In this document: positions 18,296 to 62,570 of the stretch, in pieces
Layout of the letters: each line of letters starts with the position of its first letter
Numbering within the stretch: the first letter of the stretch is position 1
DNA from: Oxalobacteraceae bacterium
Lineage (GTDB): Bacteria > Pseudomonadota > Gammaproteobacteria > Burkholderiales > Burkholderiaceae_D
DNA: 64,000 nt
Reading direction: 5' to 3'
Assembly (NCBI GenBank): GCA_027483625.1
Contig: JAIXUJ010000021.1
Span: 20,690-84,689 of the forward strand
Position numbers and translations under genes: made by a program
Notes under the pieces: generated by a model
What the model saw: the letters and a program-made list of their open reading frames with translations, nothing else
Told to the model about the DNA's origin: nothing
Database searches by the model: none

Positions 18296-18482
18296 GGTGT
18301 TCCTTTAGGTAGACTTGAGGCTGGACAGGATCGGCTGTCCCGGCCCGTGGCGGCGATTATACCGACAGAACAAGCCTCATCTATGCTGGAACTGCTGCTG
18401 GCTATGTATTGTTTTGTATCGTACTTTTTCTAGATGTTGTTGGCTGCTACAAGCGCACTTTTGCAGCAGCCTTGTGCAGTTG

Positions 18483-34196: not shown

Positions 34197-35831
34197 ATGC
34201 AAAAAATGACCCCCTCCTATCTTGCTTCCGCTGTGGCTATGAGCCTGGCGCTGGCATTCCCTGTTCATGCGGCTGGCAATGCCAGCGCTGCTGCCGTCGT
34301 CAAGGAAGCGCCGCTGCGCGCCCATCTGGCTTTCCTCGCCAGCGATGTGCTGGAAGGCCGTGGCACCGGCCAGCGCGGTGCGGACCTGACGGTTGCCTAC
34401 CTCGAAACGCAGGCGCAGGCACTGGGCCTGAAACCGGGCAATGGCAGCAGCTTCCGCCAGTCGGTGATGATCGCCGGCGTCAAGACCGATCCGGCGGCCA
34501 GCACGCTGGCACTGCAGGCTGGTGGTCAGGCGCTGCCGATCCGCTTTGGCGATGACTGGGTGTTCGCCCCCGGCGACGCCACCGCGACCCATGCCTTCGA
34601 TAATGAGCTGGTGTTCGTGGGCTATGGCATCACTGCACCGGACGAACAGTGGAACGACTTCAAGGGTCTGGATCTGAAGGGCAAGGTTCTGGTGATGATG
34701 GTCAATGATCCTCAGCCGACTGCCGAACAGCCGAACCGCTTCAACGGCAAAGGGCTGACTTACTACGGCCGCTGGACCTATAAATTCGAAGAAGCCCGCC
34801 GTCAGGGCGCTGCCGGGGTGTTGCTGATTCACACCACGCCCACTGCCTCGTATGGCTGGAGTGTGATCCAGAACAGCTGGTCGGGTGTGGAGCGCTTCCA
34901 GCTGGCCGCCGGTACGCTGGGCAGTCCGCTGCAAGGCTGGATGACGGATGCCACCGCACAGGCACTGTTCAAGGCGGCCGGTCAGGATCTGGACGCACTG
35001 CGTGCCGCGGCGGAACGCAAGGACTTCAAGCCGGTCACGCTGGCTGCCAAACTGACCGGCACCATGCAGGCTGCCGTGCGTAAAGTCGAGCAGTTCAACG
35101 TGGCGGCGGTGGTGCCGGGTACCGATCCGAAGCTGAAAGACGAAGTCGTCATTTACAGCGCGCACTGGGACCATCTGGGCAAGCAGGGTGAAGGCAAGGA
35201 TGTGATCTTCAATGGCGCGGTGGACAATGCGTCCGGTACCGCAGCACTGCTGGCGATGGCGCAGGAAGCCATCCATGCACCGGCAAAACGTAGCCAGATG
35301 TTCCTGTGGGTAGCGGCCGAAGAGCAGGGTCTGCTCGGTAGCGCGGCCTATGCTGCGGCACCGCTGTGGCCACTGGCGAAAACGGCGGCCAACCTGAATC
35401 TGGATAGTCTGAACTTTGTCGGCGCTACGCGCGACATCGGCACGCAGGGTAGCGAGCGCACCGAACTGGGTCAGCTGGCAAGCAGCACCGCCAAGGCGAT
35501 GGGCATGCGCATTGCGGATGCAGAACCGGATCTGGCAGGCGGCTACTTCCGTAGCGACCACTTCAATTTTGCCAAGAATGGTGTGCCGGCGTTCTCGATC
35601 GAATCGGGCCGCGACTACATCAAGGATGTCGCTGTTGCCAAGGCTAAAGCGGCTGCCTACGGCCCGCGCTACCATCAGGTGACGGATGAATACGATGCCA
35701 GCTGGGATCTGTCGGGCATGGTGCAGACGGCACAATACACGCTCAATCTGGGCCGTGTGATTGCGAATGGCGCCAAGCTGCCGGAATGGAAAGCCGGCGA
35801 CGCGTTCGCCCAGCCACGTAACCGCCGCTAA
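34197..35831 (+). CDS. M28-family aminopeptidase with a PA domain
   Basis: Signal peptide, HWDHLG, NGAVDNASGTA, AAEEQGLLGS and SDHFNF metal-ligand motifs. Confidence 0.85.
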   Translation: MQKMTPSYLASAVAMSLALAFPVHAAGNASAAAVVKEAPLRAHLAFLASDVLEGRGTGQRGADLTVAYLETQAQALGLKPGNGSSFRQSVMIAGVKTDPAASTLALQAGGQALPIRFGDDWVFAPGDATATHAFDNELVFVGYGITAPDEQWNDFKGLDLKGKVLVMMVNDPQPTAEQPNRFNGKGLTYYGRWTYKFEEARRQGAAGVLLIHTTPTASYGWSVIQNSWSGVERFQLAAGTLGSPLQGWMTDATAQALFKAAGQDLDALRAAAERKDFKPVTLAAKLTGTMQAAVRKVEQFNVAAVVPGTDPKLKDEVVIYSAHWDHLGKQGEGKDVIFNGAVDNASGTAALLAMAQEAIHAPAKRSQMFLWVAAEEQGLLGSAAYAAAPLWPLAKTAANLNLDSLNFVGATRDIGTQGSERTELGQLASSTAKAMGMRIADAEPDLAGGYFRSDHFNFAKNGVPAFSIESGRDYIKDVAVAKAKAAAYGPRYHQVTDEYDASWDLSGMVQTAQYTLNLGRVIANGAKLPEWKAGDAFAQPRNRR

Positions 35832-35852
35832 GCGCAGCAGCCGGTTACCAGC

Positions 35853-35888
35853 GGCGGTTGGCGCAGTGCGCCGACCGCCGTTTTTTTT
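35853..35888 (+). terminator. Rho-independent terminator after the M28 peptidase gene
   Basis: GGCGGTTGGCGC-agt-GCGCCGACCGCC (one G-T wobble) followed by G and T8. Confidence 0.8.
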
Positions 35889-35908
35889 GCCCTGACTGGT
35901 GCCGCACC

Positions 35909-36622
35909 TTAGTGGTGGAACGACACGGTGATGGTGGTGCCCGTCAGGTCGATGCCACGGATGGCGATACTGCCAAAGCTGGGGCCTTCCGAACCCTTGA
36001 CGCGGATATTGTCGAAATTGATTTCACCGATCGAGGAGGGCATGGCCAGCGTCAACGACCCGTCCTTGTTGATGGTGGCGCTGGCCTTGCTCGGGTCGTA
36101 CACCACATTTTTCATGCTGGTGTCGGCTTCCAGAAAGCCCAGCACGGGATTGACGATTTTTGCCATATCCCCGATCACTTCCAGTCCGTTGTGCTTGGCG
36201 TCCTTGACGGCGTTCACCAGCTGGTCGCTCAGCCCCTGCGCCGAGGTGTCGCCCAGTTCTTCTTCGCTCATCGCCTGCAGGCCGGGCCGTTCATTGATCT
36301 GCAAGCCGCGCTGGTCTTTGGCCAGCAAGACCGGCGTGCCGATCGCCAGTGAGGGCAGGGCCTGCGCCGCATAGCCTTCCAGTGGTGCCAGCAGCGAAGT
36401 GGCAATCGCTGCCGCCATACGCAGCCTGCGCTGCTTGCGCAGTGCCGCTTCGATGTGCTGCTGGCTAATGAGGTTCAACTCGGCAAAAATGTCACCGAGG
36501 CGCTGACCGGTTTTGCGCTGGGTTTCAATGGCGCTGGCCAGTTGTTCTTCGGTAATCAGCTTCTGTTTGACCAGCAGCTGACCCAGCATCGATTTATTCT
36601 GATTATTCGACAACCATCCCAT
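35909..36622 (-). CDS. MshEN-like (c-di-GMP-binding motif) domain fused to a member of the fibre-subunit-like family (P0)
   Basis: The ATG at 36622 is preceded by GGGGAGAA. Residues 12-35 and 41-64 each fit the 24-residue MshEN motif, with a 5-residue spacer. A hydrophobic segment follows, then MSEEELGDTSAQG, and the C-terminus is FGSIAIRGIDLTGTTITVSFHH, as in P1/P2. Confidence 0.7.
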   Translation of the reverse strand: MGWLSNNQNKSMLGQLLVKQKLITEEQLASAIETQRKTGQRLGDIFAELNLISQQHIEAALRKQRRLRMAAAIATSLLAPLEGYAAQALPSLAIGTPVLLAKDQRGLQINERPGLQAMSEEELGDTSAQGLSDQLVNAVKDAKHNGLEVIGDMAKIVNPVLGFLEADTSMKNVVYDPSKASATINKDGSLTLAMPSSIGEINFDNIRVKGSEGPSFGSIAIRGIDLTGTTITVSFHH

Positions 36623-36638
36623 CGCCTGTTCTCCCCTT

Positions 36639-36698
36639 GTATGCCGGCTATCATGCCGGCTTATTCTGCTGCCTAGTATGCTGCCTAGTATGCCAGCC
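36639..36698. repeat. Five-unit degenerate 12-nt tandem array upstream of P0
   Basis: GTATGCCGGCTA / TCATGCCGGCTT / ATTCTGCTGCCT / AGTATGCTGCCT / AGTATGCCAGCC. It includes a perfect 12-nt tandem CTGCCTAGTATG x2 at 36669-36692. Confidence 0.6.
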
Positions 36699-36752
36699 TT
36701 CGCGGCCGATCTGCTGTGCCGCGCTGTGTTGTGGTCTTTTTGCGCCGTCTGT

Positions 36753-37754
36753 TTATGCTGACTTGCGTGGTAACCCTGCCTGCAAGGCTTCCGGATGAGG
36801 CCCCGGCTGATTGGCCTGTTGCACAATATCGGACGGCGCCATGCCGAACCAGCGCTTGCAGGCGCGATAGAAGGCACTCGGTTCCGAAAAGCCCAGCTGG
36901 AAACTGAGCATTTTCAGCGACAGTTCGCCGCAGCTGAGTGACTGGCGCGCCAGTTCGCGGCGCGTATCGTCCACCAGATTGGTGAAGCTGGTACCTTCTT
37001 CGGCCAGCCGGCGTTGCAAGGTACGCTCGCTCATCATCAGCTGCGCCGCCACGTCGTCGCGGTGCGGCGGCCCCTTCGGCAGCAGGCTGGCCAGCAAGGC
37101 CTGTACCTTGGCGCTGAAGGTGGGCGGCTCGGCGCGTGCCAGCGTGGCCAGCACCCGTTCGCCGCTGCCTTCGGCCAGTGGCGGATTGGCCGGCAGCGCC
37201 ATGACCAGATCGGTGTCGGAAAACTCCATGACATTGTGCGGCATATCGAACTTCACGGGGCAGCCGAAGGTTTCTTCGTAGACGTGGGCGTTGGCCGGTG
37301 CCGGGAAGCTGTATTCCACCACCACCGGTGCGATGTCATCGCGTCCGGCAGCGCAGCGCAGCGAGCGCAGCAGCACGCACCAGACGAAGTCGTAGCGCTG
37401 TTGCGGCACACTGCGGCGCGCGCCCGGCAGCAGCAGGCCGACGCGGGTATTGCCATGGCAGCGTTCGATCGAACTTTGCACGGTGGGCGAGACCAGCATG
37501 ATGTGGCCCATCACGCCCAGCCAGCCGAGCCGGTGGGGCGAGGAGATTTTCAGGCCGATCAGGGGATCAGCCGATTGCGCCACCACCAGTTCCCACAGGT
37601 GGCTGAGTTTATCGGACAGCGTCAATGCGTCGCAGGCCAGACCCTCGCCTTCGTTCAGACCGGCTTCGGCGAACAGTGCATCGGCGGCGACACCTGAATT
37701 GATCAGCCGCGATTTCACGCCGCGCACCAGATGCAGGGCGGACGAGTAACTCAT
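36753..37754 (-). CDS. AraC-family transcriptional regulator
   Basis: C-terminal double HTH (ERTLQRRLAEEGTSFTNLV...LSFQLGFSEPSAFYRACKRWFG) and an N-terminal AraC ligand-binding-like domain. There is a 4-nt overlap with the upstream gene. Confidence 0.85.
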   Translation of the reverse strand: MSYSSALHLVRGVKSRLINSGVAADALFAEAGLNEGEGLACDALTLSDKLSHLWELVVAQSADPLIGLKISSPHRLGWLGVMGHIMLVSPTVQSSIERCHGNTRVGLLLPGARRSVPQQRYDFVWCVLLRSLRCAAGRDDIAPVVVEYSFPAPANAHVYEETFGCPVKFDMPHNVMEFSDTDLVMALPANPPLAEGSGERVLATLARAEPPTFSAKVQALLASLLPKGPPHRDDVAAQLMMSERTLQRRLAEEGTSFTNLVDDTRRELARQSLSCGELSLKMLSFQLGFSEPSAFYRACKRWFGMAPSDIVQQANQPGPHPEALQAGLPRKSA

Positions 37755-38308
37755 GGCGTAACCGCTGCGCGCAGACGCAGGCCGATTTTCTCTTTCAGGC
37801 CTTGCAGCTTGGGATCGATCACGGCGCGCGTGTCGGCCGCCACGCCTTCACCGAGGGTTTTCTGCATTTCCGGCAGCATGGCTTCGAATTTTTTCTTCAC
37901 CGGCGATTCGAGAATCGCGATCAGCTGGCGCAATTCCTCATCCGTGTAGCGTTCCGCCAGCAACGGTGCGATTTTGGCCAGGATCAGTTTGTCGGCGCTA
38001 GCCTTGGTAATCGGCGTGGCATCGGCCATGAAGGCTTTGGCCTCGTTGATGATGTCGGTCATGGCGGCCTCGCGTTTTTCCGGTGCGGCGCGGCCCTGCA
38101 GCATGGCGCGCGCCTGCTGCACGGCGTCGGCGACCGGAACTTGCAGCATGGACTGGCCGATGTTGTCCGGATTCCACAGCTTCAGCACCTGATCGACCAG
38201 CGCCTGTTTGGCGGGCGACACCGCTGCTGCATGGGCACCGGCGCAGGCTGCGCTCAGGGCTAGCAGCACCAGGCCGCGCTTGCAGTGGGTGATAAGGGGT
38301 GTGCTCAT
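37751..38308 (-). CDS. DUF2059-like periplasmic protein
   Basis: Signal peptide (AGAHA|AAV). YTDEELRQLIAILESPVKKKF matches the DUF2059 hallmark. Confidence 0.6.
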   Translation of the reverse strand: MSTPLITHCKRGLVLLALSAACAGAHAAAVSPAKQALVDQVLKLWNPDNIGQSMLQVPVADAVQQARAMLQGRAAPEKREAAMTDIINEAKAFMADATPITKASADKLILAKIAPLLAERYTDEELRQLIAILESPVKKKFEAMLPEMQKTLGEGVAADTRAVIDPKLQGLKEKIGLRLRAAVTP

Positions 38309-38326
38309 AGTTTGCTCCTTTTTAAA

Positions 38327-39955
38327 TCAGAAACGCTTGTTGATTTCAAATCCAACATAGCGCACGTGGATATCGCCTTTGACGTTCTGGCCGGCATAAG
38401 GGTTGTAGATAATGTTCAGGAAGTTGCTGCAATTGAGATTGCAATCGGTGTTCGCTGGCACGTCGTAGCGCCCCGTCATATACGAGGCAGTGACGCTGAT
38501 ATCGGTGGTCTTGCTGAGTTTGAAATTCAGTCCGCTACTCAGCAGCTTGGTATTCGGCAGTGGTGCCAGCAAGTCGATCTTGTCGTTCGGCACCGAGGTT
38601 TTGCGCGGTTCGAAACCGAAGCGCAGGGTCAGCCGGTCGAACGGAAACAGTTGCAGGCCGTAAGCGAAATTGACCAGACTTTTGTAGCCGCGCGGGATCA
38701 CCAGCTTGCCCGAATCGGGGATGCCGTACAGGCGCGCCACTTCCAGCAGCTTGATGCTCTGGTCGAACTGGAAGCGTAGCGCATCCCATTCGCTCCAGCG
38801 CGCGTAGCTGGCGTCGACATTCAGCTGCACCAGCTGGATGGGGCGCAACTTGATGCCTACCTGCAGGTGCGACGGGAAGGGAATGATGGCGCTCATATTG
38901 CCCTTCTGGGTGGCCGGAATCGAGCTGGGGAAACCCAGCGTGGCGCCAGCAATCGGTCCCAGCAGACTGGCGTTCATGCCGCGCACAAAGTTACGCAGCA
39001 TCGGTTCCGTGTCGAACTTGTAGTAGCCGGTGTAGTGGGTCTTGGAACCGCCCTGATACACCACGCCGAGCGCGAAGCGGGGATTGGGTTCCCACAGCAC
39101 GCCGAGGTTGAGGGTGGGATCGAACGGCGCGGTCATTTCCAGGCGCATATTGGCGGCCTTCTTGAACGGGCTGACCATGCCCTCTTTACCGCCGCCGCAC
39201 ACGCCGAAGCCGAGCACGTCGATGATGTTGCCGCCGTCTTCCGGGCACCAGCCTTTCTGCAGCTGGCCGAACACGCCCAGCAGCTCGTTCGGGAAGCGCA
39301 TATTGGTATCGACCACGAAGGCGGCGTGGGCAATCGGCACGGCCACGCCGAAGCGCAGCGTGTCGGAATATTTGTAGCCGACCGAGGGCGACAGATACAC
39401 CAGACGCTGGATCTGTTCCTGCCGCCCCTGATACTGGCCCGGATCGTTGGGATCGGTGGTGCGGTCCAGACTCATGGCCTGCGCCATATAGCTGTCAGTG
39501 GCAAAAGTCCATGGCGAACCGGCCTTGTTCCATGCCATGCCGACGCCCGGCACGGCCACGGCGGGCAGGCGCCAGCCCGGCATGCCGTAGCCGGGTACGA
39601 ACATCACCTGACGTACCGGCCCGGTACGGGTGTTGGAGAGCGGATCCTCGGTCCAGCCGCCGATGTCGAAATTGGCACCGGGCTTGAAGCTGGCCGAGGT
39701 GCGGATCGAGGCGACAAAGTTGTGGATCGATTCGCTATCGCCCGTCAGGCGTGCCAGTCCGGCCGGATTGAAGTGGATCGAGGCGATACCGGGCGGATCG
39801 GCGGTGACGGCATTGCCGAGCGACATGGCGACCACACTGGTGGTCAGATTTTCCGTCAGCGCCGCGTCGCTGCTGAGCGGCCACAGGGCGGCGCAGGCCG
39901 CCGCGATAGCAGTGGCGGCAAGGCGCGGACCGAGCGGGGCGGTGTGCGGGAACAT
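38327..39955 (-). CDS. FadL/TodX-family outer-membrane transport protein
   Basis: 542 aa with a signal peptide, IHFNPAGLARL near the N-terminus, alternating beta-strand pattern and a terminal ...INKRF. Confidence 0.75.
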   Translation of the reverse strand: MFPHTAPLGPRLAATAIAAACAALWPLSSDAALTENLTTSVVAMSLGNAVTADPPGIASIHFNPAGLARLTGDSESIHNFVASIRTSASFKPGANFDIGGWTEDPLSNTRTGPVRQVMFVPGYGMPGWRLPAVAVPGVGMAWNKAGSPWTFATDSYMAQAMSLDRTTDPNDPGQYQGRQEQIQRLVYLSPSVGYKYSDTLRFGVAVPIAHAAFVVDTNMRFPNELLGVFGQLQKGWCPEDGGNIIDVLGFGVCGGGKEGMVSPFKKAANMRLEMTAPFDPTLNLGVLWEPNPRFALGVVYQGGSKTHYTGYYKFDTEPMLRNFVRGMNASLLGPIAGATLGFPSSIPATQKGNMSAIIPFPSHLQVGIKLRPIQLVQLNVDASYARWSEWDALRFQFDQSIKLLEVARLYGIPDSGKLVIPRGYKSLVNFAYGLQLFPFDRLTLRFGFEPRKTSVPNDKIDLLAPLPNTKLLSSGLNFKLSKTTDISVTASYMTGRYDVPANTDCNLNCSNFLNIIYNPYAGQNVKGDIHVRYVGFEINKRF

Positions 39956-39976
39956 GGCGACAGGGTCCGTGGGGGC

Positions 39977-41002
39977 TTAGAAGTTGAGTGGCATGCTCAT
40001 GCCTACCGTCATGTTCGGCGAGTCCGGCGTCAGGCCGATACCGACCGACAGATTGACGGTGGTCTTGGGCGAGATGCGGTAGCCGAGGCCCATGTTGAGC
40101 AGGCTCGAGGTCTGCATATGGGTTTTCGCTTCCAGCCCGTCAGCGAAGCGCAGTTTCGAACCGGCCGAGATGGCTTGCTGGAAGGACAGTGTGGTGGAAA
40201 TGCCATACGACAGCGCATACGCAAAGCCCATGCCGAAGCCGACCGTGGTGCCCGGCTGGACGCGCGTCAGGATGCGCGTGCCGTTGACTTGCCACAGGTT
40301 TTTGGCGGGCAGGCTGGCGGTGACGTTCAGCGAGCCGAACAGCGCGACCGGATCGACGATGCGGTTCACACTCAGGCCGGCGGTCAGAGCGCCGACGCCG
40401 CTGCCGGTCGCTTCGCCGCTACCGGCGATGATTTTGAACGGGCTGCGTCCGGTTGGCAGACGCACATTGCTGGTGACGGTCAGGCCCGGCGTATCGCGGC
40501 GCGCTTCGAACGGCTGCCAGCGTGCACCCAGCGACAGGTCGCCCAGCGAATTGGAGGCGCCGTTGGACAGGTTGTTGTCCGAGTAGCGCGAGATAAACGG
40601 CATGGTGACGTTGCCGGTGAGGTTGTCGAGCAGGCCGTAGTCGACCGAGAAGGTGTTGGTGACGCTGTGCGAACTGGTGTTCTCGATGTTGAACAGGGTG
40701 GTGCTGCCATTGGCCAGATCGGTGACGATGCGTTCTTCGCCGATATAGGAATAGCTGAGGTCATAGGTCACGGACAGCTGCTTGCGGCGGATCAGCGAGT
40801 ACTGCTTATCGACGGCGGTCAGGGTCTGTTGCAGCAGCGCGCTCTGGTCGCCTTCGCCTTCTTTTTTGGCCAGCGCATCGCGCGCAGCGTCGGCACTGGC
40901 CGGTGTGCTTTGCTGGGCCATGGCGGGCAGGGCGACGATGCCGGTGAGGGTGGCAATGGTGGCGGCCAGTACGGTCTGTAGCGGGAACTTCATGGTATTC
41001 AT
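39977..41002 (-). CDS. Outer-membrane beta-barrel protein with an N-terminal helical extension (transporter / MetA-pathway-like family, tentative)
   Basis: 341 aa with a signal peptide (PAMA|QQ), a ~50-aa charged helical stretch (ARDALAKKEGEGDQSALLQQTLTAVDKQYSLIRRKQ), amphipathic strands and a terminal ...MPLNF. Confidence 0.65.
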   Translation of the reverse strand: MNTMKFPLQTVLAATIATLTGIVALPAMAQQSTPASADAARDALAKKEGEGDQSALLQQTLTAVDKQYSLIRRKQLSVTYDLSYSYIGEERIVTDLANGSTTLFNIENTSSHSVTNTFSVDYGLLDNLTGNVTMPFISRYSDNNLSNGASNSLGDLSLGARWQPFEARRDTPGLTVTSNVRLPTGRSPFKIIAGSGEATGSGVGALTAGLSVNRIVDPVALFGSLNVTASLPAKNLWQVNGTRILTRVQPGTTVGFGMGFAYALSYGISTTLSFQQAISAGSKLRFADGLEAKTHMQTSSLLNMGLGYRISPKTTVNLSVGIGLTPDSPNMTVGMSMPLNF

Positions 41003-41030
41003 CCTCGAGTAAGTGGGGGCTGCGGTGGGC

Positions 41031-41801
41031 TTAGTTACGGTGCATCCAGGAGCCTGCGGCGCCCGAATTGACAGCCCGCAGTAACTGCTGGGCAGAGTTG
41101 CTCATCAGGCCATCCTGCCGGCCCTTGTTGGTGACGCGATCCATGTCGGTCACCCCGAGTTCGCGATCGGTGAGTGCCAGCTTGGCCAGTGCTGGCTGGC
41201 CGGCTGGTGGCGAGATAATGAACAGGGTGTTCTTGTCCCACCAGCGGGCGAATTCTTCCACTGAAAAGACGATGTTGCCGGCCGATGGATCGGCCAGAAA
41301 TACCACCCCGTCGCGGATCCCGCGCAAGACCACGAAGTGCTTGGAACCGGCATAGTCGATCGGCACGATGGCCGGTTCGGTGAGCGTCATCAGGTCTTTG
41401 ATTTCGGCGCGGAAGCCGGCGCCGGACAGGCCCAGCGAACCGACGTAGCGCTTCATGTCGAGCAGGGAAAAACCGCGCCGCTCGATGATTTTTTCTTTCT
41501 CGCCTTTTTCCAGCATGCCTTCCATGGCTTGCTGTTCGTTGACCATCACGCCGAGGTGATAGTTGAGCACGGTAACCAGTGCGGCCGAGCCACAGCTGAA
41601 GTCGAAGGCTTGCCGGACGATGTTGTGGTACTTGAGTTCGGAGAACGGTTCGGCGCGGTAGGACTGTACGTAGTGGCCCCCGCCCACCAGATTCTGGGGC
41701 ATCTCGAACTGGTCACGCGGGCGGTCTTGCGGAGTGTGGCGTTCGATCAGGCCGGCACCGCCGATGACCGCTGCCAGCACGCCGATCAGGAGCATCAGCA
41801 T
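41031..41801 (-). CDS. Stand-alone membrane-anchored C39-family cysteine peptidase
   Basis: N-terminal TM helix (MLMLLIGVLAAVIGGAGLI). The catalytic set is present: Q64 and C70 (VRQAFDFSCGSAAL), H155 (SKHFVVL) and D171 (LADP). There is no fused ABC-transporter domain. Confidence 0.8.
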   Translation of the reverse strand: MLMLLIGVLAAVIGGAGLIERHTPQDRPRDQFEMPQNLVGGGHYVQSYRAEPFSELKYHNIVRQAFDFSCGSAALVTVLNYHLGVMVNEQQAMEGMLEKGEKEKIIERRGFSLLDMKRYVGSLGLSGAGFRAEIKDLMTLTEPAIVPIDYAGSKHFVVLRGIRDGVVFLADPSAGNIVFSVEEFARWWDKNTLFIISPPAGQPALAKLALTDRELGVTDMDRVTNKGRQDGLMSNSAQQLLRAVNSGAAGSWMHRN

Positions 41802-42329
41802 GGTTTCAGCCTGCCTTTGCAGTCTGTGCGGGACGCGCTGCGCGCGTGGGGGAAGGGTTTTTCCGGGGCGTAGGGTGAGCGCTGCCCCGGGGCGTCTGGC
41901 GCCCCATTGCTGGTGTCATCTGGTCTCCACTGCTAGTTATTGGAACGACCGTGCTTTTCTTGGGCTACGATGGTTTCCGGTTTTTTATTGATGCCATTAA
42001 CGCATGGCTCTATTCCGCAGGGCATGCTTTTTTTTAGAAATGTGACTCTAGTTCTTTTGTTGCAAAGCTGTGATAGCCGCAACAACTTATTTGCAACATT
42101 GCTCTCACTCTGTATGGCTCGCAGGGCCAAGCTGTTGGCTTTTCCGGTCAGTGCGAAACGATAGACCGTGGTTCAACAGGACTTTTAAGATGGACTCACT
42201 TAATAGCCAAATATTAAGATTTCACGCACCAGACAGTGCACCCCGACACTCCTACCCGGAGCCGAGGACAGGCCTGCGGAACGTGAGCCCATAAGACTAA
42301 AACCAACATAAAACCCGGAGATCACAAAA

Positions 42330-42839
42330 ATGCAAATCGTTAAAACCGCAATCGCAGCAGCCCTGGCAACTCTGGCATTCTCGGCTTCGGCCATGACCCC
42401 GATTCAAGACGCCGAACTGAGCACCGTCAGCGGTCAGGACGGCGTATCGATCGCCGCCAATCTGAACATCAAGATTGATTCCTTCACCTACACCGATACC
42501 GACGCAGTCGACGCCAACGGCCTCGGTGGTGGTTCGATCGCCTTCAACGGCATCAAAGTGAACGGCCTGATCGCTGCCAACATCGACATCCTGTCGAAAG
42601 CATCGTTCCTGCAAGCTGCAGGCGCTGCCGGCGTGACCAACCCAGGTACCTTCTACAACCCAGCCACTGGCGGCGATGTGGTGCAGATCGCGATTCCACA
42701 GAGTGTGGTCGCTGATGGTCACTACATGAACGTGTCGGTGGACTCGATCAAGATGGGTAACAGCGCTGCTTCCTTCGGTTCGGTTGCCATGAACCAGATC
42801 GATATGCGCGGCACCACCGTGTGGATCTTCGCACACTAA
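42330..42839 (+). CDS. Secreted fibre-subunit-like protein P1 (FilA/DUF6160-like, tentative)
   Basis: SD GGAGA. Signal peptide ...FSASA|MTP, then IQDAELSTVSGQDGVSI. It is beta-rich and ends FGSVAMNQIDMRGTTVWIFAH. Confidence 0.8.
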   Translation: MQIVKTAIAAALATLAFSASAMTPIQDAELSTVSGQDGVSIAANLNIKIDSFTYTDTDAVDANGLGGGSIAFNGIKVNGLIAANIDILSKASFLQAAGAAGVTNPGTFYNPATGGDVVQIAIPQSVVADGHYMNVSVDSIKMGNSAASFGSVAMNQIDMRGTTVWIFAH

Positions 42840-42992
42840 ATTGCATGACACTGCGCTGGCTCGCCGGGTCTGTAGCTTGGCCTGAAGAGTCAGCGTAGCA
42901 AGCTGGACGGTAATAAAGCGGCAACCCTAAGATGGTTCTGTAGCACATAAAAAACATACCAGATCTGGTACACAACATTCACGGAGACTTCC

Positions 42993-43502
42993 ATGCAATT
43001 CATCAAAACCGCAGTCGCAGCAGCCCTGGCAACCATCGCTTTCTCGGCATCGGCCATGACCCCGATTCAGGACGCAGAGCTGAGCACCGTCAGCGGCCAG
43101 GACGGCGTATCGATCGCTGCCAACCTGAACATCAAAATCAATTCCTTCACCTACACCGATACCGATGCACTCGATGCCAACGGTCTGGGTGGCGGTTCGA
43201 TCGCCTTCAACGGCATCAAAGTGAACGGCCTGATCGCCGCCAACATCGACATCCTGTCGAAAGCATCGTTCCTGCAAGCTGCAGGCGCTGCCGGCGTGAC
43301 CAACCCAGGTACCTTCTACAACCCAGCTACCGGCGGCGACGTGGTGCAGATCGCGATTCCACAAAGCGTGGTCGCTGACGGCCACTACATGAACGTGTCG
43401 GTCGACTCGATCAAGATGGGCAACAGCGCTGCATCGTTCGGTTCCGTCGCCATGAACCAGATCGACATGCGCGGTACCACCGTCTGGATCTTCGCTCACT
43501 AA
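42993..43502 (+). CDS. Secreted fibre-subunit-like protein P2 (tandem paralog of P1)
   Basis: 169 aa with 6 aa differences from P1, four of them in the signal peptide. SD GGAGA. Confidence 0.8.
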   Translation: MQFIKTAVAAALATIAFSASAMTPIQDAELSTVSGQDGVSIAANLNIKINSFTYTDTDALDANGLGGGSIAFNGIKVNGLIAANIDILSKASFLQAAGAAGVTNPGTFYNPATGGDVVQIAIPQSVVADGHYMNVSVDSIKMGNSAASFGSVAMNQIDMRGTTVWIFAH

Positions 43503-43515
43503 TCAGCTGAGCTTC

Positions 43516-43545
43516 AACAGCAGCCGCGTCAGCGGCTGTTGTTGT
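43516..43545 (+). terminator. Stem-loop after P2 (possible attenuator or mRNA stabiliser; no T-run)
   Basis: CAACAGCAGCCGC-gtca-GCGGCTGTTGTTG, 13 nt before the P3 ATG. Confidence 0.4.
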
Positions 43546-43558
43546 CTCTACACTCCCT

Positions 43559-44359
43559 ATGATGACGACCTTGCGTACCCGCTGGCTGCATGCGCTTGCC
43601 TTGCTAGCGATGATCTGCTGCACGCAGATGGCGACGGCACAGATGCGCGCACTGAGCGAAGCAGAACTGTCCAGCATGCACGGACAGGGCATCGTCGCGA
43701 TGAGTAATACCAGCCTGAATGGTTTTGATTTCAGTAAAGTGTCGCTCGATGCCGACATTACGCTGAGTGCCAATCTGCGCAATGTGCGGCTCGGTGAATA
43801 CACCTATGCAGCGCGCAACGGCAGCGGTGCCGATCTCGATATCGCCCTGTTGCAATTTGGCCGCAGCGATGGCAGCGAGGCGCAGCGCCTGGTGCATATC
43901 GCCAATCCCTATTTCGAATTTGTTTACCGCAATGCCGCCGATGGCGCCAGCCGCGAAGCGATCGGCATGCGCTTCGGTTTCGATGCCATCAGTGGTGACA
44001 TCGGTATGAAGATCAATACCCTATCCGGCTCGATGGCCGTGACGGGGCGCGCTGCCGATGGCAGTACCGTGCAACTCGATACGCGTAGCGATGCGCTGGG
44101 TGGCAAGCGCTGGGACGGTGGCTGCACGGCGCCCTGTCTGACGCTAGCGCAAGTGGGTGGGGTGACGGCAGGCGACGCGAGTGGCCCGAGCCGCGACTTC
44201 TGGATTTCGCTGCTCAAGACGGGCGTGCAGTTCCCCACTGCGACGGGCGTACCGGCTGCCGATGCGGCGCAGTCGGGCGTGTGGCTGAACTGGCGCGACA
44301 AGCTGCAGGCCATCAATACGAGCGGGCTGGTGCCTGCCAATCTTCCCAAGGGGCGCTGA
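43559..44359 (+). CDS. Secreted family member P3 (266 aa)
   Basis: Signal peptide ...ATA|QM, then ALSEAELSSMHGQG. It lacks the His-terminated C-terminal strand and has the only Cys pair in the mature parts of the family (GGCTAPC). Confidence 0.7.
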   Translation: MMTTLRTRWLHALALLAMICCTQMATAQMRALSEAELSSMHGQGIVAMSNTSLNGFDFSKVSLDADITLSANLRNVRLGEYTYAARNGSGADLDIALLQFGRSDGSEAQRLVHIANPYFEFVYRNAADGASREAIGMRFGFDAISGDIGMKINTLSGSMAVTGRAADGSTVQLDTRSDALGGKRWDGGCTAPCLTLAQVGGVTAGDASGPSRDFWISLLKTGVQFPTATGVPAADAAQSGVWLNWRDKLQAINTSGLVPANLPKGR

Positions 44360-45258
44360 TGACACGCCCTGCAGTCCGTTCGAGCTGGTCCCTGCGCAGC
44401 ACACTGTCGCTATGGCAGTGCCTGCTCCTTACCGTGTTGCCCGGTGCAGCGTTACCGGCACTGGCGCTCGAGCCGCTCAGTGATGCGGCCTTGTCGGCGG
44501 TGCGCGGGCGCGATGGCGTCAGTTTCGATCTGAACGGTTTCGCCATGAGTGGCGATGCACGCGTCAGCTACACCACGCCGCTCGGCACGACCTTGTATGT
44601 AGAGAAATTCAGTGCTTCGCGCAGCGATAATCCGCTGCCGTTTTCCGATCCGTATAAGCTCGACATCGTGCCCGGCGCAGCTGGACTAGCCGATGTGGTG
44701 AACATCGCGTTTCCCCTCAATACCTTCGGCGAGCAGCGCTGGCAGATGGCCTATGACTGGGGCGTCACGGCCGATGGTGTGACGCGCGAGCAGAGTAGTG
44801 TGGTGATCAAGGATCTGGTGCTGTATGGCGGCGGCATGCAATTCACCACGCCGCAGATCAATGACGGCGTGGCGTTCGGTGCGGCACTGCGCATGGATAT
44901 CGGCGAGCTGTCGCTGCGCGCACGCGGTCGCACCGATGACAGCGAAGCGATGGTGTGGCGCGGCATTCATGTTGGCGCGGTCGATGGCAGCGGTCTGTTT
45001 ACCAGCACGCCGTGGATGCTGGCCAATGTGGCCTCGCAACCGGCGGTGATCAATGCGCTCAGCGACGAAACCGGGCCGCGCCTGCACATCGGTATCGATT
45101 GGCCGGATAGCCGTTACGGTAGTGGCGTGGCGCCCGCCGGCGGCATCGTAGTCGATAATATTTCCTTTGTCAGTCCGAATCAGCCCACGGTGGATCTGGG
45201 CTCCTCGCGTATCGGGTCGATCCAGATCCAGTACCTCGATATCAAGTTCAAACACTGA
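44359..45258 (+). CDS. Secreted family member P4 (299 aa)
   Basis: The start overlaps the P3 stop (TGATG). ...ALA|LEPLSDAALSAVRGRDGVSF, and the C-terminus is IGSIQIQYLDIKFKH. Confidence 0.7.
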   Translation: MTRPAVRSSWSLRSTLSLWQCLLLTVLPGAALPALALEPLSDAALSAVRGRDGVSFDLNGFAMSGDARVSYTTPLGTTLYVEKFSASRSDNPLPFSDPYKLDIVPGAAGLADVVNIAFPLNTFGEQRWQMAYDWGVTADGVTREQSSVVIKDLVLYGGGMQFTTPQINDGVAFGAALRMDIGELSLRARGRTDDSEAMVWRGIHVGAVDGSGLFTSTPWMLANVASQPAVINALSDETGPRLHIGIDWPDSRYGSGVAPAGGIVVDNISFVSPNQPTVDLGSSRIGSIQIQYLDIKFKH

Positions 45259-45770
45259 TGGCGCGCCGATTCCTGATGCGACGTGCTGCGGCCTGCCTGC
45301 TGATGACGGGCCTGACGCTGGCCGCGTCCAGTGCCAGCGCTGGTGCTGGCACTGGTGCGGGGGCGCTGCGTGCGCTCGATGATCAGGAACTGGCGCAAGT
45401 AACTGCGCGCGATGGTATCAGCTTCGCTGCCCACATTTCGCTCAATGATCCGACGCTGGTGGGCGCGGTCAGCGATAGCCGGCTGTCGCTGGGCTTTAAT
45501 GGCGACGGGCAGAATCGCTACATCGTGTTCAAGAATGTGCGCGGTAAAGTGGATATGTTTGCCGTGACGCTGGGTGTGCAGACGCGTAGCGATGGCGGCG
45601 GCGATTATATCGCCATCGGCTTGCCGGGCTTTGTGCGCTACACCAATCTCGGCTTTGAATCGCTGAGCGTGCAGAACGATCCCACGGCGCCTGTGACGGG
45701 CAATCTGGGCAGCCTGAATATCAATGGCACCGTGTCCCTGCAGGGACAGGTGCGTCTGTGGTCACACTAG
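45258..45770 (+). CDS. Secreted family member P5 (170 aa)
   Basis: The start overlaps the P4 stop (TGATG). ...ASA|GAG...ALDDQELAQVTARDGISF, and the C-terminus is LGSLNINGTVSLQGQVRLWSH. Confidence 0.7.
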   Translation: MARRFLMRRAAACLLMTGLTLAASSASAGAGTGAGALRALDDQELAQVTARDGISFAAHISLNDPTLVGAVSDSRLSLGFNGDGQNRYIVFKNVRGKVDMFAVTLGVQTRSDGGGDYIAIGLPGFVRYTNLGFESLSVQNDPTAPVTGNLGSLNINGTVSLQGQVRLWSH

Positions 45771-45815
45771 GGAAGCACTGATTTTTTTTCGGTACTTCGC
45801 TTGTGTGCACCCGCC

Positions 45816-47018
45816 TTAAAGCGACGCTGTGCTGTCGCGCGCTTCACTGAGCCAGAGTAGCAGTGCCGTCAGCGGGAAGGCTAGCCCGGCCCACAACACA
45901 CCTTGCCAGCCATGGCTGGCATACATCCACGCACCCAGCGACGAACCGAGTGCACCACCGAGAAAGAAGATGGCGATGTACAGTCCATTCAGACGGCTGC
46001 GCGTGGCTGCGGCCAGCGCAAACAGGGCGCGCTGGCCGGTGACCAGATTGGCCGACACGCCCATGTCGAGCACGATGGAGGTGGTGACCAGCACCGCCAG
46101 TTCCAGCGTGCGGCCGCCATGCACCAGCAAGGGCAGGGCAAACGCCAATACCCCCAGTACTAGTGCGGCGGCGGTGGTCGAACGGCTCTTGCCCTGATCG
46201 GCGCGGCGTCCGGCAATCGGCGAGGCGATGGCGCCAGCCACACCCACTAAAGCGAAGATCGCCACGCCGGTCTGGCTGAACTGGAAGCGTGGCCCGGTCA
46301 GCTCCAGCGAGACGCAGGTCCAGAACAGGCTGAAGGCGCCGAACATGCAGGCCTGATAGGCGGCGCGGCGGCGCAGTACCGGTGTATCGCGCAGCAGATG
46401 CCAGAGTGATCCGAGCAGGGCGAAATAATGCAGGCCAGAGTCGGGCTGACGCAGTGGCAGGCGGGCGCGTAGCAACAGCGCCAGTGCTGCAGTGGCTGCC
46501 GCAGACAGGACAAAGATGGCGTGCCAGCCCAGTGCATCGGCCACCAGACTGGCAACCGGGCGTGCCAGCATGATGCCCATCAGGAGTCCGCTCATCACGG
46601 TGCCAACGGTCTGACCGCGCGTTTCCGGACGGGATAGGTGGGCGGCGAACGGTACCAGTATCTGCGCTGCCACGGCGCTCAGGCCGATGCTGAAGGCGGC
46701 TAGCAGGAATAAGGCGGCGTTGCTGGTGCTGGCAGCGGCCAGCAAGGCGATGGCGCAGGCCAGCAGGGCGCTACAGATCAGGCGACGGTTTTCCAGCAGA
46801 TCGCCAAGCGGCACGATGAACAGTAAGCCGAGGCAGTAGCCGATCTGGGTCAGGGTGACGATCAGACCGGCGGCGCTGGCGGGCAGGCCGGTGGTCTGGC
46901 TGATCGGGCCGATCAGGGTCTGGGCGTAGTACAGGTTGGCGACAATCAGGCCAGTGGCGCTGGCTAGCAGCCAGACCATGCCGGAAGAAATGTCGCGCTG
47001 GGCGTGCGAGTGGGGCAT
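45816..47018 (-). CDS. MFS transporter
   Basis: 400 aa with about 12 TM helices and an MFS loop motif (PLGDLLENRRL). Confidence 0.85.
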   Translation of the reverse strand: MPHSHAQRDISSGMVWLLASATGLIVANLYYAQTLIGPISQTTGLPASAAGLIVTLTQIGYCLGLLFIVPLGDLLENRRLICSALLACAIALLAAASTSNAALFLLAAFSIGLSAVAAQILVPFAAHLSRPETRGQTVGTVMSGLLMGIMLARPVASLVADALGWHAIFVLSAAATAALALLLRARLPLRQPDSGLHYFALLGSLWHLLRDTPVLRRRAAYQACMFGAFSLFWTCVSLELTGPRFQFSQTGVAIFALVGVAGAIASPIAGRRADQGKSRSTTAAALVLGVLAFALPLLVHGGRTLELAVLVTTSIVLDMGVSANLVTGQRALFALAAATRSRLNGLYIAIFFLGGALGSSLGAWMYASHGWQGVLWAGLAFPLTALLLWLSEARDSTASL

Positions 47019-60728: not shown

Positions 60729-62570
60729 TTACGGGGTGGCCTCGGCCGCCAGCCGCGCCGTGGCGTTGATGTCGTCTGCCGGCGGCGGCGCCGCATAATC
60801 GATCGGTACCGAGATCGAGACCGTGGTGCCGGCATGGTGGCCGGCCGTAATCGAACACTGTCCACCCAGCAGGTGAATGCGTTCTTCCATGCCGATCAGG
60901 CCGAAGGAGTCGGTCTTGTTGCGGCTGTTGGGGCGCATGCCGATGCCGTTATCGCTAATCGTCATGGTCAGCATGCCGTTGTGGTGGCGCAGTTCCACCC
61001 GCACCAGACTGGCGCGCGCATGCTGCATGATGTTGCTCAGCGACTCCTGCAGCACCCGGAAGATGGCAGTGGCGCAACGGTCGTCGATGTGGATATCGCT
61101 CTGCTGCTCGATCAGTTCGCAGACGATGCCCGAGCGCTGGCGGAACTGGGCAATCTGCCATTCCACCGCCGGGGTCAGGCCCAGATCGAGCACGGTCGGG
61201 CGCAAATCATTGATGATGTGGCGCACGCTTTTGATGGTGCTATCGATCTGCGCCAGCGTGTGGCAGGCGCGCGCATGCAGGCGCGGGTGACGCAAGCGGG
61301 TACGGGTGGCCAGCATGTCCGTTTCGATACGCAGCACCAGCAGATTCTGGCCCAGATCATCATGGATTTCGCGGGCGATACGCTTGCGTTCCTGCTCCTT
61401 GATCTGGTCCGCATGGGCGGCCAACTGGCGCAGCGTGTGGTGCGATTGCTGTAGCTTGGCCTGACTGTCGAGCAGCTCGCGGGTCATGACTTCGGCCATG
61501 CGCACGGCGCGCCGGCGCGATGATGCCAGTGTATGGATCAGCAGGTAGATCAGCAGCGCGCCCAGGAAGCCGCAGCCCATCGCCAGCCACGGCAGGAACA
61601 CGTCGAAGCGCGACAGCCAGACGGTTTTGGGGGCACTGAATTCGGCACTCCAGCTGCGCCCGTTGAAGTCCAGCGGCAGCATCACGCTGAATTGATCAGT
61701 GTGGCGCAGCGTGGCTGGCAGGCTGTCGAGGTTGTCGTACAGCAGGACGGGTGGACTGTGGCTGCCATCGGCATTCTTGCCATCGTCATACAGTCGCAGG
61801 TGGACCGTGCGGAGCTGGCTGGTGGCCATGGCTTCCTTGACCAGTCGTGGCACGCTAAAGCCGATGCCGACCGAGCCCAGATAGGCCGCGCGGCGCTGCT
61901 CGACAGATTCCAGCGGCGCATCTTTACGGTAGATCGGCATGCGCAGTGCCAGTGCCCAGCCCTGTGCGTTGTGGGTGTTTTCGATGGGCATGCCGGAGGT
62001 CATCATCTTGCCACTATCGCGCGCCTGTTCGAGCGCCAGCGTGGCGGTGGGGCGCACGCCGATGTCGACGCCGAGGCGGGCGCGGAACGGCGCAACCGGC
62101 TCGATCATGGTGAGCACGGTGTACTGCTCGCGCTGACCCTCGGGGCGGATCCGGAAAGCCGGGTAGTCTTGCACCCCGGCTGCGCCGCTACGGGCACTCC
62201 AGCGTTCGAAGCGGGTGCGCTGGCTGGCGCTGACGGCTTGCGCGTAGTTGACGTTATCGAGCGCGGGAAACTGTTCCGGCAGCAATAGACCGCTGACGTA
62301 ACGGTGGAAACCGGCGCGGTTGATGCGGTCGCTGGCCGAGAGGAAACTGGCCGAGCCGCGCAGCACGTCGGTGTAGGCGCCCAGCCGCGAACTGATGATG
62401 TAGCGCGCGTTAAAGGCCTGCTGGGTGAAGCGGCCGGCCGCCTCGTGGTCGATGGTGTGCTGCACGGCGATCTGTAGCACGAGGCCGATCAGTAGAGCGA
62501 GCAGGATGCCGGTCCACCAGACCGGGCGTTCGGGCGTTAGGCCGTGTTGTTGCGATGGCAGGGCGTTCAT
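60729..62570 (-). CDS. CHASE-domain sensor histidine kinase (HisKA_3/NarL-type)
   Basis: N-terminal TM helix, a periplasmic CHASE-like domain, a second TM helix, then REIHDDLGQNL (HisKA_3 H-box) and an HATPase domain. Confidence 0.85.
   Translation of the reverse strand: MNALPSQQHGLTPERPVWWTGILLALLIGLVLQIAVQHTIDHEAAGRFTQQAFNARYIISSRLGAYTDVLRGSASFLSASDRINRAGFHRYVSGLLLPEQFPALDNVNYAQAVSASQRTRFERWSARSGAAGVQDYPAFRIRPEGQREQYTVLTMIEPVAPFRARLGVDIGVRPTATLALEQARDSGKMMTSGMPIENTHNAQGWALALRMPIYRKDAPLESVEQRRAAYLGSVGIGFSVPRLVKEAMATSQLRTVHLRLYDDGKNADGSHSPPVLLYDNLDSLPATLRHTDQFSVMLPLDFNGRSWSAEFSAPKTVWLSRFDVFLPWLAMGCGFLGALLIYLLIHTLASSRRRAVRMAEVMTRELLDSQAKLQQSHHTLRQLAAHADQIKEQERKRIAREIHDDLGQNLLVLRIETDMLATRTRLRHPRLHARACHTLAQIDSTIKSVRHIINDLRPTVLDLGLTPAVEWQIAQFRQRSGIVCELIEQQSDIHIDDRCATAIFRVLQESLSNIMQHARASLVRVELRHHNGMLTMTISDNGIGMRPNSRNKTDSFGLIGMEERIHLLGGQCSITAGHHAGTTVSISVPIDYAAPPPADDINATARLAAEATP

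Follow-up and report, generated by a model that had tools for sequence, protein, structure and literature searches.

How could a bacterium build a surface fibre from a gene cluster that encodes no ATPase for export, and what would process the subunits on their way out? The question is raised by a locus of 11 genes in a 64-kb stretch of contig JAIXUJ010000021.1 (the window, meaning the whole stretch of DNA that was analyzed), whose host is a Duganella-like member of the Oxalobacteraceae. An earlier reading, made without database searches (the sequence-only reading), took this bidirectional locus for a candidate surface-fibre system, and the open reading frame (ORF) table of the 64-kb window does contain all 11 ORFs with the coordinates and spacing it had claimed. 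We find that the locus probably specifies a Fil-type surface fibre (pilus) together with dedicated, ATPase-free assembly machinery. In support of this conclusion, a homologue of the subunit P1 is the subunit of a solved filament, the P genes are linked across genomes to a C39 peptidase (FilB) and two outer-membrane (OM) barrels (FilC and FilD), and every P class shares a leader-like motif. The genes are as follows.

42330-42839, plus strand: P1, major fibre subunit precursor, with a Sec signal (…SASA), the propeptide MTPIQDAELSTVSGQ and a mature domain running from DGVSIA… to …VWIFAH
42993-43502, plus strand: P2, a tandem duplicate of P1 (169 aa, four amino-acid differences from P1)
43559-44359, plus strand: P3, a larger minor subunit, with the motif LSEAELSSMHGQ before G, a proline-rich end and no C-terminal His strand
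44359-45258, plus strand: P4, a minor subunit translationally coupled to P3, with the motif LSDAALSAVRGR before DG and the C-terminal strand …YLDIKFKH
45258-45770, plus strand: P5, a minor subunit translationally coupled to P4, with the motif LDDQELAQVTAR before DG and the C-terminal strand …VRLWSH
41031-41801, minus strand: FilB-like C39 cysteine peptidase, stand-alone, whose N-terminus has a hydrophobic anchor or signal
39977-41002, minus strand: FilC/FapF-like OM barrel of 341 aa, presumed to be the secretion channel, whose N-terminal segment is helical and periplasmic
38327-39955, minus strand: FilD-like OM barrel (OmpP1/FadL/TodX family) in which the cysteines C237, C253, C505 and C509 are conserved
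37751-38308, minus strand: DUF2059-like small secreted helical protein (Pfam DUF2059 E 0.002, below the cut-off)
36753-37754, minus strand: AraC-family regulator (Arabinose_bd and HTH_18 domains in Pfam and NCBIfam; QhpR/GliR type)
35909-36622, minus strand: P0, with an MshEN-type domain, one membrane helix, a variable linker, the motif LQAMSEEELGDTSAQ before G and a FilA-like C-terminal beta domain ending …TVSFHH

The link to a fibre runs through P1, which is 38% identical (phmmer E 3.7e-25) to chain A ('Pilus-like-alpha') of Protein Data Bank (PDB) entry 9XFV, the subunit of a solved extracellular filament; the surface-fibre part of the sequence-only reading is thereby upheld. 9XFV is a helical filament from karst-cave water, solved by cryo-electron microscopy with a rise of 11.70 Å and a twist of 283.86° (PMC12956863, PNAS 2026). 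It was published as a control for a handedness method, with its sequence assigned to UniProt A0A257CJ09, and the organism, the gene cluster and biogenesis are not discussed in that paper (PMC12956863). The 9XFV subunit shares with P1 the DUF6160 family, the mature N-terminus DGVSIA and a C-terminus of the form W-x-W-A-H, and differs in length (173 against about 133 mature residues in P1), 9XFV having an extra helical insert. The AlphaFold2 model of P1 is moderate (predicted local distance difference test, pLDDT, 72) and has 9XFV chain A as its one significant structural neighbour in the PDB (Foldseek E 2e-10). The template-modelling score between them is only 0.47, so the link between P1 and 9XFV rests on sequence more than on fold. 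The 9XFV chain runs from DGVSIAGDL… to …WMWAH, and its close relatives in metagenomes (257 bits) are encoded as longer precursors, MQAFKLSVVALALSAVAASASA-MSSIDDAALSQVSGQ-DGVSIAGDL…. The 9XFV model covers the stretch from the Asp to the C-terminal His in full and includes no residue of the 15 that lie between the signal-peptidase site and that Asp. Two gene clusters that encode such relatives, in a co-directional layout, also carry homologues of AraC, P3 and P4, and one of them (L180) has a FilB homologue as well. Tying 9XFV to a Fil-type gene cluster in this way is new.

The remaining P proteins resemble P1 to differing degrees. P1 matches Pfam DUF6160 (E 1.7e-20, 73.5 bits against a cut-off of 27) and the NCBIfam FilA model NF050077 (8e-12), and P3, P4 and P5 give weak DUF6160 and FilA matches in Pfam and NCBIfam at the N-terminus only. 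The coding DNA of P1 and P2 is about 92% identical, with unrelated flanks. The P precursors have Sec signals and would give beta-rich products of 13-30 kDa, and they contain no Q/N-rich imperfect repeats. A C-terminal strand ending in His, which the sequence-only reading had noticed in five of the proteins, is indeed found in P0, P1, P2, P4 and P5 of the window and not in P3; among homologues, conservation of this strand is strong in the P1 class (…D-L-R-G-T-x-V-W-I-W-A-H) and in the P5 and P0 classes, which have related strands, and the ends of P4 are more variable. Related genomes carry between one and four tandem copies of the major-subunit gene: Rugamonas and a Burkholderiaceae metagenome-assembled genome (MAG) have four (L018-L020 and L059), the window has two, and many Pseudoduganella and Massilia loci have a single copy. 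The best explanation is that P1 and P2 are the major subunit and that P3, P4 and P5 are minor subunits. P3, which ends in a proline-rich tail and lacks the C-terminal strand, may occupy a terminal position and is a candidate tip or terminal subunit of the fibre.

Among its refuting conditions, the sequence-only reading had named a lack of conserved co-localization between the P genes, the C39 peptidase and the OM barrels. We found that co-localization conserved in related genomes. A genome scan with a FilD alignment gave 80 loci that were kept, all of them from Oxalobacteraceae (Duganella, Rugamonas, Pseudoduganella, Massilia, Janthinobacterium, Noviherbaspirillum, Paucimonas and Zemynaea), the closest being a pond MAG (97%) and Duganella fentianensis (94%); among the best 120 hits of a FilD homologue search there were likewise only Oxalobacteraceae. 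The gene set keeps together in all 80 of these loci. Presence of the single genes was scored by single-sequence phmmer searches of the window proteins against six-frame ORFs, so that the counts are lower bounds: at least 80 of the 80 loci matched for FilD, 78 for FilC, 77 for AraC, 66 for P4, 63 for FilB, 57 for P0 and 53 for the DUF2059-like protein. The motif DNA pattern, which marks the major-subunit gene, was found in 72 of them. Gene order is as in the window in most of these loci, and the B-C-D order held. A separate metagenome scan used a DNA pattern for L-S-x-V-x-G-Q-D-G-V-S-I and returned 120 loci (G+C 0.50-0.70), 108 of which have a P1-like gene; 46 of these 108 also have FilB, FilC or FilD. 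The two gene sets are divergent in 24 of the 46 and on the same strand in 22 (typically in the order AraC-P1-P3-P4/5-FilB-FilC-FilD-DUF2059-P0), and a convergent arrangement is also seen (e.g., L081). The other 62 of the 108 show none of FilB, FilC and FilD; in 61 of these the sequence ends less than 3 kb from the P-gene block. A linkage that survives such rearrangement is strong evidence that the parts work together. The sole locus with more than 3 kb on both sides of a P2-P3-P4-P5 block and yet no detectable FilB, FilC or FilD is L139 (Ga0196972_1000038), which may represent an insertion or a split system.

What the P proteins have in common is an N-proximal, leader-like motif. Its DNA pattern matches only P1 and P2 in the 64-kb window, with 0 matches expected, and the motif is conserved in all five P classes (P1, P3, P4, P5 and P0) when the unique P-class ORFs of about 200 loci are tabulated, so that the shared motif claimed by the sequence-only reading is real and far beyond chance. 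The search pattern loosely constrained some motif positions and left -11, -10, -9, -6, -5 and -3 free; positions -10 and -6 are nearly invariant although they were free. P1 has the layout …FSASA-MTPIQDAELSTVSGQ-DGVSIAANL…, and counting back from the Q-D junction gives I-12, E-8, L-7, V-4 and G-2, with S or T kept at -11 in the other P classes. Over 236 sequences the P1 class has I/M-12, D-10, E/D-8, L-7, S-6, V-4, G-2 and Q-1, then D-G. The P3 class has L/M at -12, S-11, E/D-8, L/M-7, G/A-2 and Q-1, then G; the P4 class has L-12, D-10, A-8, L-7, S-6, V-4 and G-2, with R (77) or G (19) at -1 in 100 sequences; the P5 class has L, D, D, E-8, L-7, V-4 and G/A-2, with R, G, Q or K at -1; and the P0 class has L/M, E-10, E-8, L-7, T/V-4, A-2 and Q-1, then G. 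A true G-G stands at the junction in 19 of 100 P4 and 22 of 97 P5 sequences. Double-glycine leaders have the consensus L-S-x-x-E-L-x-x-I-x-G-G, with hydrophobic residues at -12, -7 and -4. By this match of pattern in register, the P motif would be a double-glycine-type propeptide, about 15 residues long, that comes after the Sec signal, a refinement of the simple "leader-like" description, of which the presence of the motif stands. Reading the leader as a post-Sec, double-glycine-type propeptide that ends at the N-terminus of the solved homologue is also new.

A plausible enzyme for such a propeptide is encoded in the same locus. FilB (256 aa) has no ATP-binding cassette (ABC) domain and matches Pfam Peptidase_C39 (1.8e-17), the NCBIfam FilB model NF050078 (1e-62) and FapD (2e-36); the domain calls of the sequence-only reading are confirmed by Pfam and NCBIfam here and in the other products. 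The Gln, Cys, His and Asp motifs of FilB can be aligned with those of the double-glycine protease LahT150 (6MPZ) and of PCAT1 (4RY2). Across 115 unique homologues no substitution occurs at C70, H155 or D171, which are putative catalytic residues, and 114 of the 115 have Gln at the position of Q64. Given its N-terminal hydrophobic segment and its lack of an ABC domain, FilB should face the periplasm, like FapD. FapD activity is periplasmic, and its catalytic Cys is essential for secretion through FapF (Rouse et al., PMC5557850). We predict that FilB cuts P1 at the Q-D junction within MTPIQDAELSTVSGQDGVSIA, at or just before Asp37. The neighbouring barrel FilC matches the NCBIfam FilC model NF050079 (1e-80), FapF (7e-23) and the FapF entries 5O65-5O68 in the PDB (8e-16), and its family comprises 1068 clusters at 50% identity. 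Some representatives of that family (P0273, P0295, P0308 and P0311) are extended at the N-terminus by long segments that contain SPOR, SH3_3, Cds6_C or lectin-like domains, which suggests peptidoglycan tethering or other periplasmic functions for FilC/FapF-like barrels in other branches.

P0 had been counted as a sixth P protein, and its motif and C-terminal strand justify that, but it is more than a subunit: the NF053729 match and profile-profile alignment described here indicate a fusion of a cyclic di-GMP (c-di-GMP) receptor to a subunit, in which c-di-GMP binding is predicted. Its start at 36622 (MGWLS...) coincides with the conserved N-terminus of homologues, and that of the longer GTG ORF does not. 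Residues 1-65 match NCBIfam NF053729 (MshE-related, c-di-GMP-binding) with 60.2 bits against a cut-off of 38, and the N-terminus also matches the corresponding regions of NfrB and PilB in NCBIfam. The MshEN consensus consists of tandem 24-residue motifs, RLGxx[LVI][LVI]xxG[LVI][LVI]xxxxLxxxLxxQ, with five residues between them, and this tandem motif is common to MshE, NfrB and P0. Both 24-residue motifs and the five-residue spacer are kept in 33 aligned P0 homologues, and the second R-L-G (RLGDIF…Q) is invariant. After the MshEN domain the homologues have a basic stretch, a hydrophobic helix, a variable linker, the segment G-L-Q-A-L-S-E-E-E-L-G-x-T-S-A-Q-G and a beta-rich domain ending …IDLTGTxITLAFHH. 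Alignment of the P0 and P1 families by hhalign (probability 93%, E 2.5e-7) places the membrane helix on the signal peptide, motif on motif, and C-terminus on C-terminus of the complete P1 precursor. This complete set of parts recurs in 76 of the 80 homologues detected, distant metagenomic ones included, and P0 forms 227 clusters at 90% identity.

Variants of P0 are also seen. One metagenomic gene (L193, 5896-6759, minus strand) joins a P0-type MshEN domain and membrane helix to an unrelated periplasmic part, and another (L077, 333-959, minus strand) has a P0-like C-domain with an ordinary signal peptide and no MshEN domain, so the receptor and the subunit-like module can evidently be swapped. 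Two Pseudoduganella loci (L029 and L032) have two P0-like genes each, one at either end of the cluster. By analogy, P0 recalls the inside-out signalling of LapD and LapG, in which a single membrane span connects a cytoplasmic c-di-GMP site with a periplasmic segment facing a cysteine protease. In P0, unlike in that pair, the receptor is fused to a pro-subunit-like domain that carries the protease's presumed recognition motif, and there is no HAMP, GGDEF or EAL module. The literature searched, in which MshEN and c-di-GMP were not queried, contains no description of this fusion architecture, and the conserved c-di-GMP-receptor/pro-subunit fusion is among the new findings. We give about an even chance to the proposal that P0 places the system under c-di-GMP control, be it as a gated substrate of FilB or as a pseudo-substrate that sequesters the peptidase.

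Which known assembly pathway does the locus resemble? In the 11 products, Pfam and NCBIfam scans found no ATPase, chaperone/usher, secretin, sortase or ABC-transporter domain, as the sequence-only reading had maintained, and no PapD-like chaperone, prepilin peptidase or CsgG/E/F domain. Chaperone-usher, type IV, curli and sortase pili were rejected because none of their domains is present in these products. The closest known system is the Fil system of Acinetobacter, for which our reference was an A. baumannii locus (L202, strain VB31459, CP035931.1) found through chromosomes filed as plasmids in PLSDB. Its genes lie on one strand in the order filA-filB-filC-filD-filE-filF; filB is split into two ORFs (7847-8284 and 8294-8686) and filE also consists of two, reflecting a frameshift or a sequencing error. 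The sequence-only reading had noted that FilA belongs to DUF6160 and that FilB is of the C39 family, and profile hidden Markov models (HMMs) bear out both (A. baumannii FilA to DUF6160, 3.8e-9; the window peptidase to FilB, as given above). In A. baumannii FilA the corresponding segment reads MQSMDDAALSAATGQ-DGINIG, and the protein ends …TITISGH. The two systems thus share a DUF6160 major subunit with a signal peptide, the motif D-x-A-L-S-x-x-x-G-Q before D-G and a C-terminal His strand, as well as a C39 FilB, a FapF-like FilC, a FadL-family FilD and the B-C-D order. Window FilB matches both halves of A. baumannii FilB (phmmer 4e-32 and 2e-20), window FilC is 38% identical to its counterpart (1e-69) and window FilD matches at 4e-101 (phmmer).

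The differences are equally clear. A. baumannii has a single 280-aa FilA where the window has duplicated 169-aa major subunits, its fil genes form a single operon whereas those of the window are divergent, and it lacks P0, P3-P5, AraC and the DUF2059-like protein, all of which the window has. Conversely, no window protein matches the A. baumannii copies of FilE or FilF at E <= 10 (phmmer), and no FilE_C domain (PF22881) appeared in the Pfam scans. The absence of FilE and FilF, the extra genes and the partial similarity to FilA make the window locus a Fil variant and not an orthologous copy. FilF is a lipoprotein exported by a type II system (PMC12802150). In Acinetobacter sp. Tol 5, two reports identify FilA as the 'Fil fimbriae' protein by Edman degradation (PMC3498257; PMC11784438). 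The Fil pili by name, the NCBIfam 'putative pilus system' and one environmental filament structure were known already; the extended Oxalobacteraceae gene set is new. The literature searched includes no paper on Fil fibre biogenesis, on DUF6160 or on a link between Fil and Fap, in keeping with the earlier view that the mechanism is essentially undescribed.

Taken together, these features allow a scheme to be drawn. Precursors with A-x-A signal-peptidase sites would be exported by Sec to the periplasm, where membrane-tethered FilB would remove the propeptide and expose the N-terminus D-G-V-S. The subunit would then cross the OM, probably unfolded, through the FapF-like FilC, which is proposed as the conduit because of its homology to FapF and because there is no other channel except FilD. 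Outside the cell, subunits would fold and polymerize into a helical filament, a step supported by 9XFV, and folding and polymerization could themselves be the driving force. Contacts between subunits probably involve the conserved C-terminal strand (…VWIWAH), although the mode of joining is a guess. In type V pili (FimA/Mfa1 of Bacteroidia), removal of an N-terminal segment by a protease licenses polymerization by C-terminal strand exchange; the precursors are lipoproteins and the protease is a gingipain. A propeptide, a dedicated protease and a conserved C-terminal strand also occur in the window, and the conserved strand invites a strand-complementation model like that of type V pili, an analogy of mechanism in which no sequence or fold relationship between the proteins was detected. 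P0, in which a membrane helix with a cytoplasmic MshEN domain takes the place of the signal peptide of a subunit-like precursor, probably couples assembly to c-di-GMP. It could be a regulated substrate that FilB releases as a subunit to prime or terminate the fibre, or it could act as a pseudo-substrate and retain the peptidase. Transcription would be controlled by AraC. In its full form the proposal is that Fil is a distinct Gram-negative fibre pathway that combines Sec export, a double-glycine-type propeptide cut by a periplasmic C39 peptidase, a FapF-like pore, protease-licensed strand complementation and, in Oxalobacteraceae, a c-di-GMP-receptor pro-subunit gate. We offer it tentatively, at rather less than an even chance of being right in all its parts.

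Several observations weigh against this scheme. P1 can be aligned with A. baumannii FilA over its first ~80 residues only (BLASTP 1e-6, 82 residues), and phmmer gave no match between the two. The window proteins all score below the cut-offs of the NCBIfam models NF050077-NF050080 ('putative pilus system'), which are of the 'exception' type and tuned to Acinetobacter (bits/cut-off: FilA 45/220, FilB 212/475, FilC 272/630, FilD 408/970). The resemblance of the motif to double-glycine leaders is one of pattern in register and not a scored family match, and bacteriocin-leader HMMs from Pfam and NCBIfam gave no match to the P proteins at E <= 0.1. Gln or Arg occupies position -1 in most cases; to our knowledge, the C39 peptidases known so far need Gly, Ala or Ser there, so FilB would need a different S1 pocket. 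The start of the 9XFV chain could merely mark the onset of ordered density, and its sequence was partly fitted to the map. In the first MshEN motif of P0 the consensus Arg is replaced by Met or Leu and the Gly by Lys or Asn, substitutions that leave c-di-GMP binding not assured, and the AlphaFold2 model is poor (pLDDT 45.7) and was not used for a fold search. Finally, the function of FilD is not explained by the scheme; the simplest guess is an anchor or a second channel.

The most serious alternative concerns one step only: the motif might not be the FilB site. The propeptide could target the subunits to FilC or act as a chaperone for it, or another protease could remove it, and FilB could process FilC, P0 or one minor subunit. 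There is a parallel in Fap, where Rouse et al. named no FapD substrate because the Fap proteins lack a canonical C39 site and proposed FapE or FapF as the target (PMC5557850), and the preponderance of Gln and Arg over Gly at -1 in most subunits fits the same idea. The motif nevertheless holds six double-glycine signature positions in register, with a true G-G in ~20% of P4 and P5 homologues; it is found in every subunit class, always co-occurring with FilB; and the 9XFV chain begins exactly after it. On this balance we consider it unlikely that FilB acts elsewhere, and cleavage of the P motif by FilB is the reading we keep.

The barrels suggest a different alternative, in which they import hydrophobic compounds under the control of AraC and the P proteins are accessory surface proteins for substrate capture instead of an adhesive pilus. 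FilD matches Pfam Toluene_X (3.3e-34) as well as the NCBIfam FilD model NF050080 (7e-122), FilC has a match to Pfam Phenol_MetA_deg ('MetA-pathway of phenol degradation'), and the AraC regulator is of the QhpR/GliR type. It is also suggestive that the Fil fimbriae of Tol 5 are abundant on triacylglycerol-grown cells (PMC3498257). Against import stand the lack of catabolic enzymes in the locus or its conserved neighbours, the closer relation of FilC to the exporter FapF than to importers, and the homologue of P1 that is a filament subunit. Substrate uptake is moreover compatible with a fibre and would at most add a role for FilD. As a replacement for the Fil-type fibre, we regard an import system as very unlikely. 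FilD has no PDB relative detectable by sequence, is ~100 residues longer than typical FadL proteins, and has its four conserved cysteines in glycine-rich segments that look like disulphide-stapled surface loops.

A third alternative is a Fap-like functional amyloid, with the P proteins secreted unfolded through the FapF-like barrel and the C39 peptidase acting as FapD. FilB and FilC do match FapD and FapF (2e-36 and 7e-23, and 8e-16 for PDB 5O65-5O68), and the export logic is the same: Pseudomonas Fap is also Sec-dependent and ATPase-free (PMC5557850), with a periplasmic C39 peptidase and a homologous 12-stranded-type barrel that has N-terminal periplasmic helices. The cargo differs. That of Fap consists of repeat amyloid proteins with no canonical site, whereas the window would export folded DUF6160 subunits with a double-glycine-type propeptide, and the Q/N-rich imperfect repeats are missing from the P proteins. 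These match DUF6160 and FilA only; models for the Fap subunits, FapA and FapE found no match in the 11 products, and the window has no FapA, FapB, FapC or FapE and an extra FadL-family barrel. FilB and FilC score much better on Fil than on Fap models, falling far below the equivalog cut-offs of FapF and FapD (700 and 330 bits). The subunits in 9XFV are folded, contain alpha-helix and rise by 11.7 Å, not by the 4.8 Å of a cross-beta repeat. An amyloid is therefore highly improbable, and of the "Fil/Fap-like" label in the sequence-only reading the first half stands and the second, as far as amyloid repeats are concerned, does not.

A C39 peptidase with a double-glycine-type leader is also the hallmark of class II bacteriocin and peptide export, but secreted toxins or bacteriocin-like proteins processed by the peptidase are a next to negligible prospect here, given Sec-signal precursors with beta-rich products of 13-30 kDa, a major form that is tandemly duplicated as pilins often are, a P1 homologue that is a filament subunit, and no ABC transporter or immunity gene. 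PCAT1, LahT and ComA are ABC transporters that contain a C39 peptidase and act on double-glycine leaders. They share with the window the leader pattern in register (L-12, S-11, E-8, L-7, V/I-4, G-2) and the Gln/Cys/His/Asp set. Their peptidase is fused to a cytoplasmic ABC exporter, whereas window FilB is stand-alone and would be periplasmic, and the window leader, unlike theirs, follows a Sec signal, usually has Gln or Arg at -1 and belongs to structural cargo of 13-30 kDa.

The layout of the locus can be described with two further features.

35850-35882: hairpin of high G+C with a T-run, lying between P0 and the convergent gene for the M28 peptidase
41802-42329: divergent intergenic region of 528 bp with lower G+C, the presumed promoter/regulatory region of both gene sets

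On the minus strand the gaps from the peptidase through the barrels to the DUF2059-like gene are 28, 21 and 18 nt; the AraC gene overlaps by 4 nt, and P0 follows 130 nt on. P3 and P4, and likewise P4 and P5, meet on the plus strand in a TGATG that was read directly in the sequence; the start of P4 is therefore at 44359 and not at 44356, a small correction. The hairpin is likely a terminator marking the left edge of the locus; with that exception, a scan for promoters and terminators gave nothing above shuffled sequence. The divergent region has no confident sigma-70 consensus, and Rfam found nothing credible in 35000-47000, with a c-di-GMP riboswitch in the divergent region specifically looked for. 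AraC is the first gene of the co-directional metagenomic clusters and is presumed to be the cluster regulator. The DUF2059-like gene adjoins FilD in all three cluster architectures, and its product, which has a signal-peptide-like N-terminus in translation, is a candidate periplasmic accessory protein or chaperone, the simplest guess. The neighbours of the locus are an M28 peptidase and a major facilitator superfamily (MFS) transporter; a mobile island was rejected because these flanking genes are conserved along with the locus. Elsewhere in the window, a TonB-dependent receptor (9435-12059, plus strand) adjoins a glycoside hydrolase family 31 (GH31) glycosidase with four F5/8 type C (discoidin) domains (12161-16174, plus strand), next to which lies a 746-aa ORF with no Pfam match (16193-18433, plus strand). 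A second TonB-dependent receptor (1732-3906, plus strand) stands beside a low-G+C stretch (1-2000), and a CHASE-domain histidine kinase of the HisKA_3 type (60729-62570, minus strand) is apparently unrelated to the locus.

Fil fibres have been named in Acinetobacter, including the pathogen A. baumannii, and FilF has been tried as a vaccine antigen; with 9XFV, a relative from an environmental sample has been seen at near-atomic resolution. The locus and its approximately 200 relatives turn that name into a testable scheme, with a propeptide and its predicted cut, a peptidase with an intact catalytic set and an amyloid-type pore. The scheme bears on a question from the Fap field, namely what periplasmic C39 peptidases cut: if it is true, a long-sought kind of substrate for FapD-type peptidases would be identified. 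The P0 fusion suggests, in addition, a new route from c-di-GMP to a surface structure, in which the signal is joined directly to a fibre subunit precursor. Given that the family is widespread in soil and freshwater Betaproteobacteria, these fibres may matter for attachment and biofilms there.

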